DNA of 19,694 bases from the NCBI GenBank assembly GCA_043812195.1, contig JBDRML010000034.1, forward strand, positions 1 to 19,694, in the 5' to 3' direction. Positions 6,693 through 17,403 of this stretch are shown here, piece after piece. The stretch is from Candidatus Woesearchaeota archaeon. Lineage in GTDB: Archaea > Nanobdellota > Nanobdellia > SCGC-AAA011-G17 > PNOQ01. A program made the position numbers and the translations under genes. Positions within the stretch are counted from its first letter, which is position 1. Each line of letters begins with the position of its first letter. The notes beneath the pieces were generated by a model. The model did not search any database, was not told the origin of the DNA, and saw only the letters and a program-made list of their open reading frames with translations.

Positions 6693-7136
6693 TTGAAAAA
6701 GATTTATATTGGTTCGGATCATGCAGGGTTTATTCTAAAAAATTCTATTAAAACACATTTAACTAATAAAAAACATAAATTTATAGATCTAGGTAACTTA
6801 AAATATGAAAAAGAGGATGATTATCCAGATTATGCAGAAGAAGTAGCAAAAAAAGTAGCAAAAGAAAAAACAAAAGGTATTCTAATTTGTGGTTCAAGCC
6901 ACGGAGTATGTATCGCAGCAAACAAAATAAAAGGAATTAGGGCAGTTGCAATTAATAATACAAAAGATGCTAAAATTACAAGAGAGCATAATGATGCAAA
7001 TATTCTATGTTTGTCTGAGTGGCATCTAAAAGAAAAAGAAGTTGGAAAAATAATTGATGTCTGGTTAAAAACAAATTTTAGAAAAGATAAAAGACATATA
7101 AGAAGAATAAACAAAATAAAGAAATTGGAAAGATGA
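6693..7136 (+). CDS. rpiB: Ribose-5-phosphate isomerase B
   Basis: GSDHAG, DYPD, ICGSSHGVCIAANKIKGIRA, REHNDANILCL, RHIRRINKI; TTG start with SD. Confidence 0.93.
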   Translation: MKKIYIGSDHAGFILKNSIKTHLTNKKHKFIDLGNLKYEKEDDYPDYAEEVAKKVAKEKTKGILICGSSHGVCIAANKIKGIRAVAINNTKDAKITREHNDANILCLSEWHLKEKEVGKIIDVWLKTNFRKDKRHIRRINKIKKLER

Positions 7137-7756
7137 ATTATCAAATAATACCGGCAATAATTGCTAAAAATCAAAAGGAACTAAATGTGAGAATTGTAAA
7201 AGTATACAGATATTTTAAAACAATACAGTTAGATGTAATGGATGGCATCTTTGTCAAAAATAAATCATTAATATTTAATTTTAGACTACCAAGAAATAAA
7301 AAATACGAAGCCCACTTAATGGTTAAAAATCCAATAAGCTGGATTAAAAAATATGATAACAACGTTCAAAGAATAGTAGTTCATGTAGAATCAGAAAATG
7401 TTGAAAAAGCATTAAATTTAATTAAAAGTATGAAAAAACAGGCAGGAATAGCTATAAATCCAAAGACACCACTTAATAAATATTTAAAATTTTTAAAAAA
7501 AATAAATTATGTAACAATATTAGCTGTAAATCCTGGAAAATATGGTAGCAAATTTATTCCTTCAGCACTTAAAAAAATAAAGGAAATTAAAAAAATAAAT
7601 CCTAAAATAAATATCGAAGTTGATGGTGGATTAGGAGATAAAAATATTAAACAAGCCAAAAAAGCAGGCGCAAATTTATTCATTTCAGGCTCATATCTTC
7701 AAAATTCAAAAGATATTGAATCCTCTATTAAAAAATTAAAATCTTTAATAAAATGA
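7133..7756 (+). CDS. rpe: Ribulose-phosphate 3-epimerase
   Basis: IIPAI, LDVMDGIFV, EAHLMV, GIAINPKTP, VNPG, EVDGG, GANLFISGS; ATGA overlap with rpiB. Confidence 0.92.
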   Translation: MNYQIIPAIIAKNQKELNVRIVKVYRYFKTIQLDVMDGIFVKNKSLIFNFRLPRNKKYEAHLMVKNPISWIKKYDNNVQRIVVHVESENVEKALNLIKSMKKQAGIAINPKTPLNKYLKFLKKINYVTILAVNPGKYGSKFIPSALKKIKEIKKINPKINIEVDGGLGDKNIKQAKKAGANLFISGSYLQNSKDIESSIKKLKSLIK

Positions 7757-9618
7757 AAAATATAAAAATAATGATGATTGTAATTTTGGTTTTTTGTATT
7801 CTAGTTATTTCTGGATGCGAATTACAATTATCCCAACCTAAAGGAAACGCACTTATTAACAAATCTGAGGCCACAGACACTTTAGAAGGAAGAGTTAGTT
7901 TAATAGCTATTGATGATTTTGATAACCCACAAAATAGTAGATTAGAATGGTTTATTAATACACCACAAGGATCCTTTATTTTAAGAGGAGATAACCTATT
8001 TTCATTAACGCCTGGCTCTAAAATTAGAGTTAGCGGGAAATTAGATGGTACGGATTTAACTATCACAGATGAAATTGTTATTCTTAGAGATGTAGAATTG
8101 CCAGGACCCGAATTTAATTTAGGAGAAAATAAAATTTTAATAATATCGGGAGAATACGGTGATTATCCAACTAATCTAGATACAGAAGAAATAAGACATT
8201 TTACATTTGAAGGATTTCCATCTATAAACGGTTATTATGAAGAAAACTCATACGGCAAGAGTTGGTTTGAAGGAGATGTTATCGGACCATTATATTTAGG
8301 AGACATAAAGCCTACAGGCATGCCTTGTTGGCCATTGAATCATCAAAATAAAATTACCATTACAGAGGATTTCATAGAAGCAGTAGATTCATTAATTAAC
8401 TTCACAGAATACAAACGTATCATTTTTTTATTGGGAGACAATTGTGCAAACGGATTTGGAGAAATTGGACCAGCAGTACATGAAACCTCAGACGGTGAAG
8501 TGATTCAGACTTGGGCATGGGTATCATCATATAGAGTTTCTGATTTCATTCATATCGCGTCTCACGAATTAGGGCACAATTTTGGAACTCTACATTCTAA
8601 CTTCGCATACTGCGGAAATATTGATTTTGGAGATAATTTTAGCAATTGTGAAAGTTGGGAGTATGGAAATATCTTTTCAGTCATGGGGGGTAATTCAAGA
8701 CTTGGACATTTTACAGTTAATTATAAGGATCAAATAGGGTGGATCAATATTGATGAAAAAATAAATGTAACTTCTGGAAAATATTTTTTAACACCATTAG
8801 AAATCGATAATGGTCTAAAAGAAATTATGATACCCTATGGGGTTATTAATGCCCCTTCTTTTACTTCATTTTTAGGTAATGTAAGTGCCTATTATATAAT
8901 AGAATATCGACAACCTCTTGGCTATGATAATAATTGGAACCCAGACTATAACTATTCAAATTACACATATGCAACACCTGAAATAAATGGGACATTTGTT
9001 ACGTTTAGAACTATTCCATACGACGACTTATTTTTCAACCCATACTTTAATTCAAATGAACATTTAATAGACTCCACACCTGAGGAATGGGAGTTGAATG
9101 GAACGAAAATGCCACAGGAAGATTCTATGTTATTAGAAGGACAAGAATTTCATGATAATAATATTGGAATAACAATCAGAGTTCTTTCGATGAATTCATC
9201 AGGAGCAGAAATTGAAATAATAAGAACTAAAGTTCCATCATGGACAGAATGTAACACAGAAACACAACCAAAAGATTGTAACGCTGTATGCACAGATTTA
9301 AATACAACATGCGTTGAAGAATGTACAACAATTAGTAGAGTTGAAAATGCAGGAGCAGAAATATTTATAGATGTAAACGACTGTAGTTTAGATTATTCTT
9401 ATGAAAGTGGTTGTTTCAACACAATACCAACCGGTTCAAGTAGGCATTGTTGTTGTTTAATTGAATCAGTTGGCGAACCAGAGCCTCCAAGTGGCGGAGG
9501 CAAAGAAGTATATCAACAAGCATTATTAGAAGAAGAAGGCTCACAATTGTCAAAAGAATCAATATTTACTAAAATAATAAACATAATTAAAAATATACTA
9601 ACAGCAAAAATAAAATGA
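7753..9618 (+). CDS. Secreted lipoprotein-type zinc metalloprotease (metzincin, M11 gametolysin/M6-like) with C-terminal Cys-rich domain
   Basis: Signal with lipobox LVISGC; YYEENSYGK; HELGHNFGTLH (HExxHxxGxxH) at 8563; Met-turn EYGNIFSVMG; IEYRQPLGYD; 10-Cys domain shared with 11454..15293. Confidence 0.85.
   Translation: MKNIKIMMIVILVFCILVISGCELQLSQPKGNALINKSEATDTLEGRVSLIAIDDFDNPQNSRLEWFINTPQGSFILRGDNLFSLTPGSKIRVSGKLDGTDLTITDEIVILRDVELPGPEFNLGENKILIISGEYGDYPTNLDTEEIRHFTFEGFPSINGYYEENSYGKSWFEGDVIGPLYLGDIKPTGMPCWPLNHQNKITITEDFIEAVDSLINFTEYKRIIFLLGDNCANGFGEIGPAVHETSDGEVIQTWAWVSSYRVSDFIHIASHELGHNFGTLHSNFAYCGNIDFGDNFSNCESWEYGNIFSVMGGNSRLGHFTVNYKDQIGWINIDEKINVTSGKYFLTPLEIDNGLKEIMIPYGVINAPSFTSFLGNVSAYYIIEYRQPLGYDNNWNPDYNYSNYTYATPEINGTFVTFRTIPYDDLFFNPYFNSNEHLIDSTPEEWELNGTKMPQEDSMLLEGQEFHDNNIGITIRVLSMNSSGAEIEIIRTKVPSWTECNTETQPKDCNAVCTDLNTTCVEECTTISRVENAGAEIFIDVNDCSLDYSYESGCFNTIPTGSSRHCCCLIESVGEPEPPSGGGKEVYQQALLEEEGSQLSKESIFTKIINIIKNILTAKIK
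9229..9480 (+). repeat. Cys-rich domain, copy 1 (copy 2 at 14757-15008)
   Basis: KVPSWTECNTETQPKDC...SSRHCCCLIESVGEP; 75/84 aa identical to copy 2; 47-nt exact match 9385-9431 = 14913-14959. Confidence 0.97.
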
Positions 9619-9621
9619 AAA
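9562..9621 (+). repeat. Conserved C-terminal tail plus stop/start junction, copy 1 (copy 2 at 15237-15296)
   Basis: 57/60 nt identical; last 33 nt exact (aaaaatatactaacagcaaaaataaaatgaaaa). Confidence 0.95.
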
Positions 9622-11402
9622 GAGAACTTCAAGAAATAGCAAACATTCTAAGAAGAGACGTAATAAAAATGACTACAGCAGCAGAAAGCGGTCACCCAAC
9701 TTCTTGCATGTCATGCGCAGAAATAATAAGTGCATTATTCTTTAATGAAATGAGATATAATAAAGATCCATTTAATCCAGACAATGACGAATTTATTTTA
9801 AGCAAAGGTCACGCAGCACCAATTTTATATGCAGCATTACACAGAGCAGGCAGATTAAAAGAAAAATTAACAAATCTAAGAAAATTAACAAGTTCATTAG
9901 AAGGTCATCCTACTCCAGAACTAAAATGGATAAAAGTTGCTACAGGTTCTTTAGGTCAGGGTTTATCAGCAGGAGTTGGAATGGCTTTAGCAGCAAAACT
10001 ACAAAAAAGAAAATTCAGAACTTATGTTTTAATAGGCGACAGCGAATCAGCAGAAGGCTCCAATTTTGAAGCAATACAATTAGCAGCACATTACAAATTA
10101 AACAATTTGTGTGCAATACTAGATGTAAATAGACTAGGCCAAACAAAACAAACAATGTTAGGCCACAATGTAGAAGAATACAAAAAAAGATACGATGCAT
10201 TTGGCTGGAATTCTATAATTATAGATGGACACGACATAGAACAAATCCTTAAAGCACTCAAAAAAGCTAGAGAATCAAATAAACCAACGATAATAATTGC
10301 AAAAACATTCAAAGGAAAAGGAATAAGATTTTTAGAAAATGAAATAGGACATCATGGAGAAGCACTAGACCACAAAAAAATGTTAATGGCACTAAAAGAA
10401 CTTCCAAATCCTAAATTTCCATACATAAAAATTCAAAAACCAACAAAAACAAAATTCAAAATAAAATTAAAGAAACCAAATAATATAAATTACAAATTAG
10501 GAGAAGAAATAGCAACAAGAGAAGCATATGGAAATGCTTTAGCTTCTTTAGCAGAAAGAAATCAAAATATTTTAGCAATAGATGCAGAAGTAAGCAACTC
10601 AACATTTTCAGAAGAAGTAAAAGAAAAAACACCAAAACAATTCATAGAAGCTTACATAGCAGAACAAAATATGATTGGGATGGCTTTAGGACTATCTAAA
10701 AAAGATTTCAATGTTTTTGCATCAAGTTTTTCAGCTTTTTTATCAAGAGCCCATGATCAATTAAGAATGGCAGCAGTTTCAGATGCAAATTTCACAGTCT
10801 GCGGCTCACATTCAGGAGTTTCAATAGGAAAAGATGGCGCCTCTCAAATGGGATTAGAAGACATATCAATGTTCAGATCTTTACCAAACAGCATTATTTT
10901 TTATCCATCAGATGCAGTCTCAACAGAGAAATTAACAAAACTATGTGCAAAATTAAAAGGAATAAAATATATTAGAACTACAAGACCAAAAACTCCAGTT
11001 ATTTATAAAAATTCAGAAAATTTCAAAATAGGAGATTTCAAAGTTCTTAAAAAATCAAAAAAAGACAAAGCAGTTGTAGTTGGTTCAGGAATAACAGTTC
11101 ATGAAGCATTAAAAGCTTACAAAGAATTAAAAAATATTGCAGTCATAGATTTATATTGTATTAAACCATTTAACTCAAAAAAATTCATAAAATTCATAAA
11201 AAAACACGGAAATAAAGTTATCATAGCAGAAGATCATTACAAGGAAGGCGGAATTGGTGAAATGTTAATCTCAGAACTTAAAAATACAAATATTAAAATC
11301 AAACATCTTTATATACCAGAAATTCCACATTCAGGTACACAAGAACAATTATTAAACAAATACAAAATAAATTCAAAAGCAATAATAAAAGCTGTAAAAT
11401 GA
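9615..11402 (+). CDS. tkt: Transketolase (single-chain)
   Basis: SGHPTSCMS, LSKGHAAP, LEGHP, TGSLGQG, TPP motif GDSESAEG...DVN, IAEQNM, DGASQMGLED, EDHY. Confidence 0.95.
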   Translation: MKRELQEIANILRRDVIKMTTAAESGHPTSCMSCAEIISALFFNEMRYNKDPFNPDNDEFILSKGHAAPILYAALHRAGRLKEKLTNLRKLTSSLEGHPTPELKWIKVATGSLGQGLSAGVGMALAAKLQKRKFRTYVLIGDSESAEGSNFEAIQLAAHYKLNNLCAILDVNRLGQTKQTMLGHNVEEYKKRYDAFGWNSIIIDGHDIEQILKALKKARESNKPTIIIAKTFKGKGIRFLENEIGHHGEALDHKKMLMALKELPNPKFPYIKIQKPTKTKFKIKLKKPNNINYKLGEEIATREAYGNALASLAERNQNILAIDAEVSNSTFSEEVKEKTPKQFIEAYIAEQNMIGMALGLSKKDFNVFASSFSAFLSRAHDQLRMAAVSDANFTVCGSHSGVSIGKDGASQMGLEDISMFRSLPNSIIFYPSDAVSTEKLTKLCAKLKGIKYIRTTRPKTPVIYKNSENFKIGDFKVLKKSKKDKAVVVGSGITVHEALKAYKELKNIAVIDLYCIKPFNSKKFIKFIKKHGNKVIIAEDHYKEGGIGEMLISELKNTNIKIKHLYIPEIPHSGTQEQLLNKYKINSKAIIKAVK

Positions 11403-11422
11403 AATAATTTTAAAAAGATAAT

Positions 11423-11430
11423 TATTTAAA
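11423..11430 (+). promoter_or_regulatory. TATA-like box for the C25/FG-GAP gene
   Basis: tatttaaa ending 24 nt before ATG 11454, the same spacing as at 193, 3320, 3778 and 19585. Confidence 0.5.
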
Positions 11431-11453
11431 TCAGTTTAAGCATTTTTAATTAC

Positions 11454-14400
11454 ATGAAAAAGAGGTTCATATTTATAATTCTAATCTTATTAGTTTTAGT
11501 TATCTCTGGATGTGAAGAATGGAGATCTGGTCCTGAAAAAAATAAGGACATTAAAAAGAAATATCTTACTGAATCTGAATTAGGATTAACTACTGATTTG
11601 TTTAAAGCAGAACAAATTTTTTCAGTTCAAGATTTAGAGAAAAACAAGAATCTTAGAAAATATTTAAAAGGAGATAAGTCTATAAGCCAGTACGATTATG
11701 TTGAAGTAACAAAATGGGCAGATCCAATAAGAAAAGAGCCATTTGGTTATAAAGAATATATAAAAGAAAGGGAATTTTTTGAAGCTACTTTAATTTATTC
11801 CTCAGAATCTGAAAATGATGATTTGCTTTTCTTAATAATCGATAGTAATCTATATCCTTACATAGAGAATGAACTTTCTATTTTTATCGGCGATTTAGAA
11901 AATGATGGGTACAATATTGAGATGTATACAGTAACGTATGGCGATCCAGAAGACTTAAGATCTTTTTTACAAACAGCTTATCCATCTCTTGTTGGAACTA
12001 TTTTAATAGGAGATATATCTACCGCTTGGTATGAAATTTATTATGATGAATTTCCCATAGATTATTTTTATATGGACCTAAATGGAAATTGGATAGATGA
12101 AGATAGCAATGGTTTATTTGAAAATCATACTGGTAGTGTGGAACCAGAAATATGGGTGGGAAGAATAGACGCAACAACATTAGAAGGTGACAATATAGAA
12201 CTATACAAAAATTATTTTAATAAAAATCATAAATACAGAACAAGTGAATTAAAGTTGCCAACAAGAGCTCTTGTTTATGTAGATAATGATTGGGCATATG
12301 GTTCACAATGGGAACAAGATCATGAATACTTATACGAATATATTAATTATGTAGATAATCACGATGGAACTAATGCATTTGATTACCAAAACCGCCTGAA
12401 TTGGGATTATGAATGGATAACAGTAATGGCACATTCTAGTTCTGGGGGGCACATTTTTAGCAGTAAATTTGAAGGAGATGAATATTTCGATAATTGGGTT
12501 TCTTCAAATGATATAATGGAACTAGATCCAAACGGTTTATTTTATAATCTCTTCGCATGCTCATCTGCTCGATTTACTGAATATGACTATATTGCCGGGA
12601 GATATCTTTTTGCAGATACATATGGTTTAGGTGTTGTTGGTTCAACTAAATCAGGAAGTATGCTACAATTTGGGTATTTCTATCAACCACTTAGTTATGG
12701 GAAGAATTTAGGAAGTGCGTATAAAGATTGGTTTGATTACATTGCAACAGATGGTTTTGATGAAGGAGAGATATCCTGGCATTATGGAATGGTTTTGCTT
12801 GGCGATCCAACTTTAAAACCTAACGTCCCTAATGAAATTCCTATTGCTGATATTAATATGGAAGATTATACTGAGATATCGTCATTAAATGATATAGTTG
12901 GAACTGCTAAAAAGGGAATTGAAGAAGGATCAACATTTGATAATTATAAATTATATATTGGCTTAGGAGTAAACCCTGAGGAATGGTCAACTAATGGAAT
13001 AACAGTAATCGAAAATGGGTCAATTGAGATAAATAAAAATTTACTTGGCGAATTTGATACGACTAAAACAAATGAAAAATTTAACACATTAAAATTAACT
13101 GTTAATGGATCTGAAACACAAACCAATTATAGAATAGTTATTGATGTAAATAATATTTATTTTTCTGATCCACTAAATAATGATTTTAAAAAAAGTGGAG
13201 AAAATATACAAATTATTGGTACTGTTATGGGAACCGATTTTTCTAACTATACTATTGATTATGGTATCGGTATCGAACCTACAACATGGTTTACTGAAGG
13301 GATTATATTAACTAATGGAGGTCTAAATCAAGTGATTGATGATGTTCTTGCTGTATGGGATACATCTACTATACTTGAAAATAACTTCTATACATTAAGA
13401 ATTACACGGTACGATGTTGATAGATTTCAAGTAACAGAAAAAATAATAATTTTTTTTGATCTAGAGTATTTGGAGGGATGGCCACAAAAAGTTAACTTTA
13501 GATTAGTAGCACCTTCTGTTGGTGTTGGAAGCATAGAGTCTAATAATGAAAAACATTGGAAAATTGTAGCTGGAGAATTTAAATATAGTGAATATTATAC
13601 ACCCAAACAAATTTATTTATTTAATTACGATGGTAAAGATGTACCCAACTGGCCTAAGGAAATCTGGAGCCAAGGTACTAGATCTCTATCAACATTAGCA
13701 AATATAGATGAAGGAGATAGTTTAGCGATTTACATTGGTGAAGAATTTCTATTATGGGGGTGGAATTATGACGGCAATACTTTTGGTAATTGGCCTTTCG
13801 AAATTGAACCATTTAATAGTGAAATTTATAATGGTCCAACAATAGGGGATATAGATAATGATAATGAACTAGAAATTATAGCTACAACATTAGTATTGGA
13901 TGAAATAGGAAGTTACATCGGAGTTTGGGATAAAAATGGAAATGTAGAAGATGGTTGGCCATTTATTTTAATAAATAGTACTATTGTAGGTAGTACACCT
14001 GCTATCTCTGACGTAGATAAAGATGGATTTTTAGAGATATTTATTGGATCCACAGACAAAGTTTACGGATTTAATCATGATGGTACACTTTTACCGGGTT
14101 GGCCAATATCAATAGATGGATTTATATGGAATTCACCTGTTATCGTAGATATTAATCAAGATGGTAATCTTGATATTATTTTTTGTTCTGATAAAGTCTA
14201 TGCATTTAATTTTAATGGAACTAATGTGGATGAAGATATTTGGCCAGTAGACATTAGTTGTTATATTGGATCTCCAGCAGTTGGAGATGCTGATGGTGAT
14301 GGAGATATTGAAATAGTGTTATCTTCTTATTTAGAGGGAGATGATCAGATTATTATAATCAATCATGATGGTACAATTTTACCTGGTTGGCCAGTTATCG

Positions 14401-15293
14401 CTCAAGGAACATCATTTACATCTCCTATATTAGGTGATATCGATGGAGATTATGATATAGAAATTTTAATTTCGAGCAACATAAATATTGGCAGACTTTA
14501 TGCATTTCATCATAATGGAAGTATAGTAAATGGTTGGCCAAAAATATTACCTACTCCAATTATAAATGAACATAGAGCTATAGAGAGAGGAACTCCAATT
14601 ATATCAGATCTAGATGAAGATGGAGATGTAGATATTATACTTGGTTATGAAAATTATCTTTTTGTGTGGGATTTAAACACACCTTACAATTCATTTACAA
14701 TGGAATGGCCAATGTTCCAACATGATCCTCAACATACTGGACTATACACAAAACCAAAAGTCCCAACATGGACAGAATGCAATACAGAAACACAACCTAA
14801 AGATTGCAACGATGTATGTGAAGACTTAAACACAACATGTATAGATGAATGTACAACAATCAGCGGAGTTGAAAATGCAGGAGCAGAAATATTCATAGAT
14901 GTAAATGACTGCAGTTTAGATTATTCTTATGAAAGTGGTTGTTTCAACACAATACCAACAGGTTCTAGTAGGCATTGTTGCTGTTTGCTTGAATCAATTA
15001 GCGAGCCAGATTTTTGTGGAGACGGGAATTGTAATGGTAATGAAACAGATATAAATTGTCCTGAGGATTGTGGTTGTCAGGCTGCTGGATGTGATACATT
15101 TGCTCCTGGAGACTGTTATTGTGATTCTGTATGCGTTGAATATGGAGATTGTTGTTCAGATGCATGCTCAGAGTGTGGATATTGTCCTAGAGGAGGAGGA
15201 AAAAAATTATATCAACAACTATCAAAAGAACCAACCATATTTACTAAAATACTAAACACAATCAAAAATATACTAACAGCAAAAATAAAATGA
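11454..15293 (+). CDS. Large secreted lipoprotein: C25 (gingipain-like) cysteine peptidase, two Ig-like repeats, FG-GAP repeats, Cys-rich domain and somatomedin-B-like domain
   Basis: LVISGC lipobox; ILIGD, DYFYMDL, PEIWVGRI, MAHSS (His327), FACSS (Cys369), LLGDPTL; repeated GWP...SP.(I/V).D(I/L)DxDGxxEI; WPMFQHDPQHTG; CGDGNC..NCPEDC; CYCDSVCVEYGDCCSD. Confidence 0.85.
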   Translation: MKKRFIFIILILLVLVISGCEEWRSGPEKNKDIKKKYLTESELGLTTDLFKAEQIFSVQDLEKNKNLRKYLKGDKSISQYDYVEVTKWADPIRKEPFGYKEYIKEREFFEATLIYSSESENDDLLFLIIDSNLYPYIENELSIFIGDLENDGYNIEMYTVTYGDPEDLRSFLQTAYPSLVGTILIGDISTAWYEIYYDEFPIDYFYMDLNGNWIDEDSNGLFENHTGSVEPEIWVGRIDATTLEGDNIELYKNYFNKNHKYRTSELKLPTRALVYVDNDWAYGSQWEQDHEYLYEYINYVDNHDGTNAFDYQNRLNWDYEWITVMAHSSSGGHIFSSKFEGDEYFDNWVSSNDIMELDPNGLFYNLFACSSARFTEYDYIAGRYLFADTYGLGVVGSTKSGSMLQFGYFYQPLSYGKNLGSAYKDWFDYIATDGFDEGEISWHYGMVLLGDPTLKPNVPNEIPIADINMEDYTEISSLNDIVGTAKKGIEEGSTFDNYKLYIGLGVNPEEWSTNGITVIENGSIEINKNLLGEFDTTKTNEKFNTLKLTVNGSETQTNYRIVIDVNNIYFSDPLNNDFKKSGENIQIIGTVMGTDFSNYTIDYGIGIEPTTWFTEGIILTNGGLNQVIDDVLAVWDTSTILENNFYTLRITRYDVDRFQVTEKIIIFFDLEYLEGWPQKVNFRLVAPSVGVGSIESNNEKHWKIVAGEFKYSEYYTPKQIYLFNYDGKDVPNWPKEIWSQGTRSLSTLANIDEGDSLAIYIGEEFLLWGWNYDGNTFGNWPFEIEPFNSEIYNGPTIGDIDNDNELEIIATTLVLDEIGSYIGVWDKNGNVEDGWPFILINSTIVGSTPAISDVDKDGFLEIFIGSTDKVYGFNHDGTLLPGWPISIDGFIWNSPVIVDINQDGNLDIIFCSDKVYAFNFNGTNVDEDIWPVDISCYIGSPAVGDADGDGDIEIVLSSYLEGDDQIIIINHDGTILPGWPVIAQGTSFTSPILGDIDGDYDIEILISSNINIGRLYAFHHNGSIVNGWPKILPTPIINEHRAIERGTPIISDLDEDGDVDIILGYENYLFVWDLNTPYNSFTMEWPMFQHDPQHTGLYTKPKVPTWTECNTETQPKDCNDVCEDLNTTCIDECTTISGVENAGAEIFIDVNDCSLDYSYESGCFNTIPTGSSRHCCCLLESISEPDFCGDGNCNGNETDINCPEDCGCQAAGCDTFAPGDCYCDSVCVEYGDCCSDACSECGYCPRGGGKKLYQQLSKEPTIFTKILNTIKNILTAKIK
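14757..15008 (+). repeat. Cys-rich domain, copy 2 (copy 1 at 9229-9480)
   Basis: KVPTWTECNTETQPKDC...SSRHCCCLLESISEP. Confidence 0.97.
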
Positions 15294-15296
15294 AAA
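15237..15296 (+). repeat. Conserved C-terminal tail plus stop/start junction, copy 2
   Basis: IFTKILNTIKNILTAKIK* versus IFTKIINIIKNILTAKIK*. Confidence 0.95.
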
Positions 15297-15946
15297 TACC
15301 ATTTAAAAGAATAAAAGAGGAAATAAGTAAAGAACATTTCAGAGTTGCTATTTTTGGTTCTGCTAGGATTAAAAGAAACGATAAAAATTATCAGATGATC
15401 TATGATTTATCAAAAAAAATAGGAGCAGAAAATATTGATATAGTTACTGGTGGAGGTCCAGGAATTATGGAAGCAGCTAATAAAGGCCATAGAGCAGGCA
15501 GCACTGGAACTTCACATTCATTTGGTTTATTAATTCAATTACCAAAAGAACAAAGAACAAATAATAGTTTAGATATCAAAAGAAATTTCTCTAAATTCAC
15601 AAGCAGATTAGATAGTTTTGCAGATTTATCAAATGTATTTATAGTCGCACCAGGTGGAATAGGTACAACACTAGAATTATTTTATATCTGGCAATTAACA
15701 CAAGTTAAAAAATTAAGAGAAGAAGTCCCAATAATTTTAATTGGCCCAATGTGGTCTGATCTAATTAAATGGGTCAAAAAATGGCAACTAAAAAGAAGAT
15801 TTATTGATAGAAAAGATTTGGACGGAATATTCTTCGCCAAAACTCCAGAAGAAGCAATGAAAATAATAAATAAAGCACATAAATTAAATATCGAAGGAAA
15901 GAGACAAATATCAAAGAAATTAAGAAATCTAAAGGAACACGTTTAG
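15290..15946 (+). CDS. LOG-family nucleotide phosphoribohydrolase (SLOG Rossmann fold)
   Basis: FGSAR, TGGGPGIMEAANKG, APGGIGTTLE (PGGxGTxxE), PIILIG. Confidence 0.92.
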   Translation: MKIPFKRIKEEISKEHFRVAIFGSARIKRNDKNYQMIYDLSKKIGAENIDIVTGGGPGIMEAANKGHRAGSTGTSHSFGLLIQLPKEQRTNNSLDIKRNFSKFTSRLDSFADLSNVFIVAPGGIGTTLELFYIWQLTQVKKLREEVPIILIGPMWSDLIKWVKKWQLKRRFIDRKDLDGIFFAKTPEEAMKIINKAHKLNIEGKRQISKKLRNLKEHV

Positions 15947-15966
15947 GTAAGAGAATTAATTATAAG

Positions 15967-17403
15967 TTATCTATTTGAATAAATCCAATTCACTTCAGGA
16001 TATTCAGAACATTCAAATTCAAGTTTATAATTTTCTTCCATAATACTTTTAAGATTTTGCCATTTTTCTGTTTCAAATCCAGAATTAAACTTTGTAAAAA
16101 TAAAATAAATAGTTTTATCTGTGGAATTTAATAGTTCTTTAATTGTTTCTTCATTCAAATTATCTGGATAATAAGCACTTTCTTTTTTTACATAATATCT
16201 AAATAATGGTGGGTTTTCACTAACAATCATAAAATCTCCATTTATACTTTGAAGTTCAGTAGCTACTTCCTCAAAACATTTTGTATTTGTATTATGATAA
16301 ATACCATATTCAACAAAAAAGTAAATTCCCGAAGAAATTAAAAGAATTAAAAGAATTACAAAAATTATTAACTTTTTATATTTCTTTACCTTATCTACAA
16401 AATATCCTGAAATTAAAGCAATAGTTGGAACAATTGCTAAAATAAACCTATCTTCTTTATGTGGCATATAAATCGCCATTCCTAAGAAAAAAGCAAACCA
16501 AATTAAAAGCAAATAAAATTCTTTTTTCAAGAAATCTTTTTTATACAAAATATAAATTAGCCCAATAACAAAAATAAATCCTATTATTGAGAACATCTGC
16601 AACCAATGATCAAAAAAGAAATGCCAAGATTGAATTCCACCCCAATAAGAAGATGCCATAGCTCCATGAATAAATGCTCCTATTGGATTATTATATTCAA
16701 AAACCCCATAAATAAACCAAGGAATCAAAGCTAAGAAAAATGCTAAAATTGAATACCACAAATATCTATCTTTCAAAAATTTAAAAGATTTATCTCTTGC
16801 TAAAAAATATAAGATAAAAACAGGAATTATCCATAAAGCAGTATATCTTGATAAAAGAGCTAAAGCTAAAAAAACCCCAAATAAAACCTTATGTTTTTTA
16901 TTCTCTTTTTCATAACCTTTCCAAAAACTTAAAAATGTAAGCAAAACCAAAAAAGTAAATAAAACACCAGTTAAAATTCTTCCACTGTAAAAAGCGTGCA
17001 GAGGAATTAAAGCAAAAAATGAAGAGGAAATCAAACCAATTTTTTTATTAAATAATTCTTTCCCTAATAAATAAACAAGAACAACACTAAAAGCCCCAAC
17101 TATTGGCATTATAAAATTTATTAAAAAATTTAATTTCAAAAAATAAAATCCAGATATCAAATAAGGCAATAATGGAGCCCTAAATCCCGCGCTTAAATTT
17201 AATTGATTCCCAGGCATAAAATCAATCCAACCATGTGTAAAAGAATATTGAAAAAAATTCTTAGATAAATCATAACCAAGATTAGTATATACTGTTTCAT
17301 CCCATAATTTGACAGGCATAACAAAAACAAAAAATACCCTAATTACTAAGGCAATTGCAAAAATGCAAATAATAATTCTATTTTTTTTAATCCAATTTTT
17401 CAT
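15967..17403 (-). CDS. GT-C fold polytopic glycosyltransferase (PMT_2/ArnT-like, GT39/GT83)
   Basis: WDE loop motif after TM1, RAPL, many TM helices, KEDRF; ATG 17403 overlaps the upstream stop (ATGA); ORF track starts at 17418. Confidence 0.85.
   Translation of the reverse strand: MKNWIKKNRIIICIFAIALVIRVFFVFVMPVKLWDETVYTNLGYDLSKNFFQYSFTHGWIDFMPGNQLNLSAGFRAPLLPYLISGFYFLKLNFLINFIMPIVGAFSVVLVYLLGKELFNKKIGLISSSFFALIPLHAFYSGRILTGVLFTFLVLLTFLSFWKGYEKENKKHKVLFGVFLALALLSRYTALWIIPVFILYFLARDKSFKFLKDRYLWYSILAFFLALIPWFIYGVFEYNNPIGAFIHGAMASSYWGGIQSWHFFFDHWLQMFSIIGFIFVIGLIYILYKKDFLKKEFYLLLIWFAFFLGMAIYMPHKEDRFILAIVPTIALISGYFVDKVKKYKKLIIFVILLILLISSGIYFFVEYGIYHNTNTKCFEEVATELQSINGDFMIVSENPPLFRYYVKKESAYYPDNLNEETIKELLNSTDKTIYFIFTKFNSGFETEKWQNLKSIMEENYKLEFECSEYPEVNWIYSNR

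Follow-up and report, generated by a model that had tools for sequence, protein, structure and literature searches.

A conserved amphipathic C-terminal tail on unrelated exported proteins of a Woesearchaeota-type archaeon as a candidate surface anchor

Why should two secreted proteins with dissimilar cores share the same beginning and the same end, and what might the shared parts do? The question is raised by two genes in the window analysed here, which is the complete 19,694-bp contig C34 of a 45-contig, 0.94-Mb genome (G000, 90.4% complete) of a Woesearchaeota-type archaeon. One encodes P0001, a metalloprotease-like protein, and the other P0002, a gingipain-like protein; both begin with a lipobox, and both end with a 10-Cys domain, a linker and a short tail. 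An earlier note on this DNA had proposed a polymorphic family of surface proteases, with catalytic cores exchanged between constant N- and C-termini in a manner analogous to known C-terminal sorting domains. The shared feature is real and more than a duplicate, and its novel, general element is the tail, not the 10-Cys domain or the N-terminus. We would class this tail, borne in the window by strain-variable surface proteases, with the amphipathic anchors at the C-termini of exported proteins, as a new variant whose sequence is conserved.

The two tails, IFTKIINIIKNILTAKIK and IFTKILNTIKNILTAKIK, are identical at 16 of 18 residues and 51 of 54 nucleotides, and they follow related linkers (GGGKEVYQQ...QLSKE in P0001, GGGKKLYQQLSKE in P0002), as the earlier note had described. 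The helical tail ends five secreted proteins of this genome: the metalloprotease, the C25/FG-GAP protein, a beta-helix protein, a LamG/glycosidase-like protein and a protein with a transglutaminase core. The tail is a portable C-terminal module on unrelated payloads, and to this extent the original proposal is supported. The linker element, in the general form GGK-x-(L)(P)-[YH]-[QE]-[QA], was found in five open reading frames (ORFs) of the genome, comprising P0001, P0002, an 868-aa lipobox beta-helix protein, a 1025-aa DUF5060/apiosidase-like/LamG protein and a 551-aa S8 subtilase. In four of these five, an acidic stretch and then the helix follow. The S8 subtilase (L006 261-1916, contig C41) stops after the acidic stretch, ending ..GGKTLPYQQYIPEEGY, with the linker element and without the helix, and no remnant of a helix was visible downstream of it in the three forward frames. 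The secreted 640-aa transglutaminase-core protein (L017 1060-2982, contig C15) ends in the helix alone, ..WYEKILNFFRNLF. A transglutaminase cross-link through the lysine and paired glutamines of the linker was considered and dropped, as the family is common (10/14 controls) and nothing ties it to the linker.

Outside this genome, the full tail was found only on P0005, an allele of P0001, and P0009, an orthologue of the beta-helix protein. A search of 5.8e9 proteins for it returned four proteins of this genome and P0005 (5 of 1598 candidates), and the full-tail profile A2 had no clear match in 40 relatives, where three weak matches covered the helix part only. The helix itself is a diverged form of a motif, FFxKIINWFKNLF-COOH, that ends exported proteins across Woesearchaeota-type archaea, with ..FFAKIINWFKNLF as the canonical version. 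A 21-position profile built from seven helices (A3) matched 65 of 151 genomes of the same order at E <= 0.05. Of the 29 best loci, which were inspected individually, 19 were ORFs of at least 90 aa with the motif 0-5 residues before the stop codon; 13 of the 19 showed a signal-peptide-like N-terminus by eye, and the rest ran off the locus. The others comprised a 72-aa membrane protein ending in the motif, three large envelope proteins with an internal copy, one protein with the motif just after the signal peptide, and five dubious cases. At the scale of the phylum, 16 of 201 genomes matched at E <= 0.002, all labelled as the same family, order or class, and six of ten new loci were C-terminal. 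Thirty tails give the consensus [NSG][FIL][FI]xKI[IL][ND][WF][FI]K[NR]LF with 0-8 residues before the stop; as the tails were collected with a regular expression and a profile, its frequencies are in part a product of that selection.

A scan across GTDB with the pattern I[ILV][ND][WF]FK[NGR]LF gave at least 54 confirmed loci. Among the 54 matches listed, the motif lay no more than five residues before the stop in 48; by record title, ten came from Woesearchaeota or Nanoarchaeota and 39 from Clostridia (Acutalibacteraceae, Ruminococcaceae, Clostridioides, Clostridium baratii and others), and the remaining five were one each from Bacilli, Parcubacteria, Methanosarcinales, an unclassified bacterium and a Bacteroidaceae-labelled bin. 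Neither Pfam nor NCBIfam has a model covering the tail in the 22 bearers scanned, and no description of it, including under the motif strings, was found in the literature, subscription papers and supplements lying outside the search. The motif has several variants. Many Acutalibacteraceae and Ruminococcaceae proteins (L070-L105) have a longer end with CDxCG and a doubled helix, ..FFxKIKAFFQKIINWFKNLF, while three DUF1002 proteins, from two Clostridioides metagenome-assembled genomes and Clostridium baratii, end in a single motif. In L046 (G160) the motif stands directly after the signal peptide (..SFIDKIIEWFKNL..) and not at the C-terminus. A large envelope protein, present here (L062 588-3242, contig C22) and in relatives (L022, L025, L035), has a signal peptide, Ig-like repeats, a transmembrane helix and a Lys/Glu-rich cytoplasmic tail, with an internal copy of the motif between acidic linkers; it is possibly an S-layer-type scaffold.

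The two other shared parts proved to be of narrower or more ordinary distribution. BLASTP found a single significant segment in common, residues 491-621 of P0001 against 1100-1279 of P0002 (E 1e-51), all other segments having E >= 0.27. Within it, the two copies of the 10-Cys domain align without gaps, with ten cysteines each and 75 of 85 residues identical. They differ at 31 of 255 nucleotides, 20 of the differences being synonymous and 11 non-synonymous by the Nei-Gojobori method, with a synonymous rate (dS) of 0.555 and a non-synonymous rate (dN) of 0.056. The dN/dS ratio is 0.10, and hence the shared module is under purifying selection, as the earlier note had supposed from the mostly synonymous differences; its count of 75 identities in 84 residues holds as well. 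The same note had treated the domain as a general chassis, and this was not borne out. A profile search of 1.84e9 representatives gave 173 matches at E <= 0.001; among the 150 listed, P0002 and P0004 (P0001's own cluster) alone matched best over profile positions 1-89, and nearly all the others fell on a second Cys module. One weak match, P0118, had its best stretch at profile positions 20-110 and, judged by its end, looks like a CGDG-repeat protein. A word-based search of 5.8e9 proteins found the domain in two of 91 candidates, P0004 and the allele P0005. Since it is confined to these two genes and one allele among the proteins searched, the 10-Cys domain is private to them, and so a local duplication; for the domain, this is an outcome that the earlier note had named as refuting its proposal.

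No relative of the domain was found in Pfam, NCBIfam, PDB or the ESM Atlas. Pfam searches with both C-terminal pieces gave DUF4318 alone, below the cut-off (E 0.039), and residues 489-580 had no usable feature match in the ESM Atlas, its structure rows reaching TM-scores of 0.35-0.55 to unrelated families. An AlphaFold2 (AF2) model of the domain with the tail, made from a three-row alignment, had a mean predicted local distance difference test (pLDDT) of 45.4 and a predicted TM-score of 0.29. In P0002, the second Cys module, with 14 cysteines, lies between the 10-Cys domain and the linker; it matches the beta-helix protein (L008, contig C41) at 45 of 61 residues and 144 of 183 nucleotides. The end of P0002 is a mosaic of a P0001-like 10-Cys domain, a Cys module like that of the beta-helix paralogue, and a P0001-like tail. 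The module pattern, CGDGxC..ETDxNCPxDCG..CxCDSxCxxYGDCCxDACxECGxC, is very widespread and often tandemly repeated, and has no matching Pfam model; we take its second half to resemble the somatomedin-B Cys pattern.

At the N-terminus, both proteins carry V-I-S-G-C after the hydrophobic core of the signal peptide, in agreement with the definition of the lipobox, [L/V/I][A/S/T/V/I][G/A/S]C, in passages of PMC12462473, which also report lipoboxes and the AliA family of lipidation enzymes for DPANN archaea. The heptapeptide LVISGCE is present in both genes where the earlier note had placed it. A crude rule, applied to ORFs of at least 100 aa with a signal-like start, found a lipobox-like motif in 19 of the 177 signal-like ORFs of the genome, about ten having the form xISGC. 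The helix tail is on three of the 19; a fourth, the S8 subtilase, has the GGK-LPYQQ element alone, and two or three tail bearers start with plain signal peptides instead of a lipobox. The shared N-terminus is thus the genome's generic lipoprotein signal, and the suggestion that it forms a constant part of a shared chassis is not supported.

What, then, might the helix do? Over nine tails the hydrophobic moment was 0.47-0.77, and the shuffles reaching it ranged from 1/2000 (0.0015) to 102/2000 (0.051). The tails in the window have a mean hydrophobicity of 0.16-0.25, with K or N every 3-4 residues, which makes them amphipathic and not membrane-spanning. Tails are cationic, and are preceded by acidic or Cys-rich segments; AF2 placed a helix at residues 113-132 of the 133-residue C-terminal piece, with low confidence. 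Most bearers in relatives have, by eye, a plain signal peptide and no other anchor. The decisive lead comes from one bearer, L117 from Bacilli: it is a carboxypeptidase of the Peptidase_S11/DacA family (E 4.6e-57) ending ..FFNKIINFFKNLF, and the DacA model NF008059 aligns its residues 16-349 to positions 44-398 of 403, up to the last residue. According to passages of PMC2909392, E. coli PBP5 attaches to the inner membrane, on the outer side, through an amphipathic helix made of its last 18 residues, and it needs this helix to function. In L117, the motif family is by alignment in a position equivalent to the PBP5 anchor, and the tails of the window are diverged members of this family.

A processing enzyme co-occurring with the tail, which the earlier note had suggested looking for, did not come to light. 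The 90.4%-complete genome had no match to the archaeosortase/exosortase model PF09721, for which M. jannaschii was detected as a positive control, none to rhomboid PF01694, for which 14 of 14 controls were positive, and none to sortase PF04203. Nor does the tail resemble known substrates: it is without the transmembrane helix or basic cluster expected of archaeosortase-type CTERM signals, and no NCBIfam CTERM model matched at E <= 1. The GGGK is followed by a hydrophilic linker and not by the transmembrane helix of GlyGly-CTERM proteins, and the LPYQQ/LPHQ element has neither the TG nor the transmembrane helix of LPXTG proteins. That no archaeosortase, rhomboid or sortase was found, that the tail has no transmembrane segment, and that the motif is present in very different envelopes all fit a self-sufficient interfacial anchor in the membrane.

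On this reading, P0001 and P0002 would be exported, lipobox-bearing surface hydrolases whose C-terminal parts have been copied between genes. The last 18-19 residues would form a cationic amphipathic helix. Its most likely place is in the cytoplasmic membrane, on the outer side, where it would keep the protein at the cell surface in the manner of the PBP5 helix. Both enzymes would be tethered at two ends, by a lipid at the N-terminal cysteine and by the C-terminal helix, with a flexible acidic linker between the two tethers and conserved ends flanking a fast-changing payload. The analysis shows how the sequences are related and distributed, the fold of the C25 domain and the variation between strains; we infer the lipidation, the membrane binding of the helix, the protease activity and any role towards a host. 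The explanation as a whole, of surface hydrolases with copied C-termini, a PBP5-like helical anchor and a variable payload, we rate at a little better than even.

Comparison with known systems shows where this anchor would be familiar and where it would be new. PBP5/DacA, and also PBP6 and PBP4, share the same arrangement of an exported protein with a signal peptide, a C-terminal amphipathic helix of 14-19 residues and no transmembrane segment. Unlike in PBP5, the motif here keeps its sequence on many unrelated payloads and in more than one domain of life, and the proteins of the window add to the tail a lipobox, a private Cys domain and a linker of the GGGK-LPYQQ type; the likeness to E. coli PBP5 is one of arrangement and position. 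MinD and FtsA, which have no signal peptides, are also brought to the membrane, on the cytoplasmic side, by short amphipathic helices at the C-terminus in which Lys/Arg, Leu/Ile and Phe abound. The ..KRLFGG endings of some relatives (L033) presumably resemble these membrane-targeting helices. PGF-CTERM, PEP-CTERM and GlyGly-CTERM are likewise short C-terminal tags on unrelated secreted proteins of one lineage, but, unlike these signals for archaeosortases and rhombosortases, the tail has no transmembrane helix, basic cluster, detected cognate enzyme or NCBIfam match. The C-terminal domain of the type IX secretion system (T9SS) and the dockerin are, like the tail, modular C-terminal units for surface targeting on C25-like cores, in other phyla; they are folded, roughly 60-80 residues long and served by known machinery, whereas the tail is a single helix.

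Several observations weigh against a simple membrane anchor. Firstly, the tails of the window are the least typical, with I/T in place of W, I of F and L of the final F, and with TAKIK added at the end; they also have the lowest moments, and a fraction of only 0.03-0.05 of the shuffles reaches these. Secondly, the sequence itself and not just its pattern is conserved (K, I, W, F, K, L and F at 19-27 of 30, frequencies partly set by the way in which the tails were collected), as is more usual in protein recognition than in plain lipid binding. Thirdly, the internal copies (L022, L025, L035 and L062) and that in L046 imply that the motif need not be terminal. Fourthly, the GGGK-x-LPYQQ element is unexplained by the anchor model. 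Fifthly, the calling of signal peptides relied on inspection by eye or on a crude hydropathy rule, not on a trained predictor, and part of the 65/151 matches must be chance, since 5/29 were dubious short ORFs or membrane proteins. The sequence conservation, the internal copies in envelope proteins and the GGGK-LPYQQ element speak for specific recognition of some kind, and so keep alive two rival readings, of docking and of sorting.

The tail might instead be a docking helix, binding a conserved surface protein such as the Ig-repeat envelope protein through helix-helix pairing of the dockerin-cohesin kind. Strong conservation of the motif in sequence would suit such recognition, as would its internal copies, flanked by acidic linkers, in a signal-peptide-bearing, membrane-anchored envelope protein of this genome and three relatives. 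Yet Clostridia, Bacilli and Parcubacteria, for which this envelope protein has not been shown, have almost the same motif, and in a PBP5-family enzyme the motif stands where the anchor would be; docking is therefore unlikely, if worth keeping in mind. We think it similarly unlikely, as a bolder proposal, that FFxKIINWFKNLF-COOH is an undescribed surface-retention signal common to Archaea, Firmicutes and the candidate phyla radiation (CPR), read sequence-specifically through a conserved lipid feature or a receptor and thus more than a generic amphipathic helix. In this DPANN-type archaeon it would then serve, beside the lipobox start and a 10-bp junction repeat containing stop and start codons, as the constant end of a recombination chassis by which strains exchange or diversify hydrolases displayed where the cell meets its host.

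Processing of the tail is less probable again. Here the GGGK-x-LPYQQ element would be a cleavage or attachment site, and the helix the handle for a hypothetical enzyme, as a non-transmembrane counterpart of PGF-CTERM and GlyGly-CTERM. Six proteins keep the GGK element, the allele P0005 and the orthologue P0009 among them, and the S8 subtilase ends just after it without a helix, as a processed product would. On homologous payloads, moreover, known sorting domains stand where the tail does. Among the 120 listed of 598 homologues of the C25-like core of P0002, which is the scope of all domain counts for this core, 17 have a T9SS tail (Por_Secre_tail, PF18962) and 27 a dockerin (PF00404) at the tail's position; a further homologue, P0165, ends ..LLPGFEAIFAIIGLLAVAYLIRRNQ at the same position, presumably a PGF-CTERM-like archaeosortase signal. 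Neither PF18962 nor PF00404 matches P0002 in Pfam, and PF18962 has no match on P0001 either. The ending of P0165 suggests that the same C25 payload uses different anchors in different archaea. But the tail has none of the transmembrane helix, basic end, candidate enzymes or CTERM matches sought above, and the GGK element was not found in the 40 relatives, while the helix is widespread without it. The analogy with sorting domains drawn in the earlier note thus holds by position, but in character the tail resembles the PBP5 type of anchor and not a processed domain.

A third alternative, which we regard as very improbable, directs the helix at the host, inserting it into the host membrane to bridge the cells, or to disturb that membrane while the protease cuts the host surface. 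A cationic, amphipathic helix, degradative payloads and a small, symbiont-like genome would all fit, and one tail weakly matches the phenol-soluble-modulin model (E 0.036, below the cut-off), but free-living Firmicutes carry the motif on housekeeping enzymes, a D-Ala-D-Ala carboxypeptidase for instance. That the tail has no function of its own, the shared C-terminus being a trace of local duplication and the likeness of tails a chance of AT-rich composition, is scarcely credible: the 10-Cys domain is truly confined to two genes, K, I, N, F and L are common in the genome and low-scoring chance matches are many, but the dN/dS of 0.10, the un-chance-like position of the motif within five residues of the stop (48/54 among the matches listed, and 19/29), and the retention of the tail at 98-100% between strains while the core diverges all speak against it.

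If the tail is indeed an interfacial anchor, it would bear on a wider problem. DPANN archaea live attached to other cells, and to our knowledge the means by which they hold their surface enzymes are largely unknown. The tail is a concrete candidate, of 14-19 residues and without a Pfam or NCBIfam model among the 24 tail-bearing proteins scanned in all, for surface retention without an archaeosortase, and it ties these archaea to the experimentally grounded anchor of PBP5. That its core recurs nearly unchanged in Clostridia, Bacilli and Parcubacteria could reflect either convergence or transfer, and a census with tail profiles would better annotate exported proteins in thousands of uncultured genomes.

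The payloads themselves were assigned with differing firmness. P0001 has the zinc-binding motif HExxHxxGxxH in the form HELGHNFGTLH, as the earlier note had read it, and the motif is kept in the divergent allele P0005. The closest neighbours of its core (residues 30-488) in the ESM Atlas were Peptidase_M11/M6 clusters (score 0.97, TM-scores 0.72-0.79). No curated family model scored above its cut-off, Reprolysin_5 reaching 17.6 bits against 27 in Pfam, and the M6 domain model TIGR03296 25 bits against 110.8, over residues 136-180 only; in sequence searches of PDB with both proteins, the best E was 0.026. That the core is an M11/M6-like metzincin, and a protease, is accordingly a lead.

For P0002, no direct match to Peptidase_C25 (PF01364) was found at E <= 0.1 in Pfam, whereas 32 of the 120 listed homologues of residues 85-470, which are 40-60% identical, carry it in precomputed Pfam annotation. 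Hence P0002 is regarded as belonging to a divergent branch of the family. His327 and Cys369 are invariant in 60 aligned homologues, and the AF2 model of the domain has a pLDDT of 91.4. The top five Foldseek matches in PDB, 4rbm, 1cvr, 4ief_D, 6i9a and 4ief_B, are gingipains K and R (E 2.5e-11 to 2.1e-10, TM-scores 0.61-0.63), followed by CHAT and separase proteases. The predicted structure points to a gingipain-like caspase/haemoglobinase fold, and to a putative peptidase, so that the C25 identity given in the earlier note was right at the level of fold and family branch, though the protein misses the Pfam model. Four FG-GAP_3 stretches (PF13517, E 6.5e-17) follow this domain. The features of both genes are collected in Table 1.

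Table 1. Features of the P0001-P0002 locus, in coordinates of the window, with nucleotide identity to metagenome contig L064
Feature	Position	Strand	Basis or remark
P0001, lipobox zinc metalloprotease-like protein, 621 aa, with 10-Cys domain and tail	7753..9618	+	ORF and translation
P0001 lipobox LVISGCE	7801..7821	+	Cys codon 7816-7818
HELGHNFGTLH, metzincin-type zinc-binding motif, P0001 residues 271-281	8563..8595	+	read from sequence
85-aa 10-Cys domain, copy 1 (P0001)	9229..9483	+	BLASTP, alignment
P0001 linker PSGGGKEVYQQALLEEEGSQLSKE (GGGK-x-Y-Q-Q element and acidic stretch)	9487..9558	+	varies between strains
P0001 putative C-terminal amphipathic helix SIFTKIINIIKNILTAKIK	9559..9615	+	moment 0.48; matches helix profiles A3, hel2
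Transketolase gene	9615-11402	+	Pfam; separates P0001 from P0002
10-bp direct repeat TAAAATGAAA, left copy	11395..11404	+	contains transketolase stop codon
P0002, lipobox protein, 1279 aa: gingipain-like core, FG-GAP, 10-Cys domain, second Cys module, tail	11454..15293	+	strain-variable
P0002 lipobox LVISGCE	11496..11516	+	sequence
C25 (gingipain)-like clan CD peptidase domain, P0002 residues 85-470	11706..12863	+	homologues, AF2 fold
Candidate catalytic His327 and Cys369 in P0002	12432-12434, 12558-12560	+	alignment
Best-scoring FG-GAP_3 stretch, P0002 residues 853-909	14010..14180	+	Pfam PF13517; whole repeat region larger
85-aa 10-Cys domain, copy 2 (P0002)	14757..15011	+	BLASTP, alignment
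Second Cys-rich module, 14 Cys, P0002	15012..15194	+	common to beta-helix protein of contig C41
P0002 linker PRGGGKKLYQQLSKEP	15186..15233	+	sequence
P0002 putative C-terminal amphipathic helix TIFTKILNTIKNILTAKIK	15234..15290	+	moment 0.47; matches helix profiles
10-bp direct repeat TAAAATGAAA, right copy	15286..15295	+	P0002 stop codon and next gene's start codon
218-aa gene downstream of P0002	15290-15946	+	
Identity to L064	up to about 7715		95-100%
Identity to L064, P0001 core	7816-9135		35-73%
Identity to L064	9136-9535		79-92%
Identity to L064, helix included	from 9536		96-100%, except last bin at P0002 insertion site, 82%

The locus itself differs between strains. Relative to the window, metagenome contig L064 is 98.9% identical in nucleotides over the transketolase gene and 99.4% over the next gene, and is without P0002, the transketolase stop overlapping the start of the next gene. 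Its allele of P0001, P0005, is 56% identical in amino acids overall. Contigs of four DNA runs from four studies were also compared with positions 7000-16500 of the window: in three of the four, a joint from 11394 to 15286 passes over 3,891 bp, and 10 bp at the joint match both sides; one of these three runs also contains contigs internal to P0002 without differences. P0002 forms a 3.9-kb cassette whose gain or loss took place at a 10-bp repeat, and only some strains have it. The core of P0001 has diverged to 35-73% nucleotide identity between strains whose flanks are 99-100% identical. In two runs, contigs match only from 9109/9110 onward, as does L064. The polymorphism claimed in the earlier note is therefore upheld as far as the locus varies between strains, but the exchanged cores of P0001 are homologous and divergent, not unrelated. 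These surface proteases are among the fastest-varying genes of the organism, a pattern expected for molecules facing a host or predator.

The surroundings are of a different character. In a window with a G+C content of about 25-33%, the + strand reads rpiB-like, rpe-like, P0001, transketolase, P0002 and the 218-aa gene, the neighbours' names other than transketolase being readings of their translations. Transketolase separates P0001 from P0002, a point absent from the earlier note. The two surface-protein genes are thus wedged among genes of pentose-phosphate type (rpiB-like and rpe-like at 6693-7756, and transketolase) and the 218-aa gene. Overlaps of four nucleotides, ATGA, join P0001 to both its neighbours and P0002 to its downstream neighbour. 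The 10-mer TAAAATGAAA forms three gene junctions, at 9609 (P0001/transketolase), 11395 and 15286, and carries the stop codon of the upstream gene together with the start codon of the downstream one.

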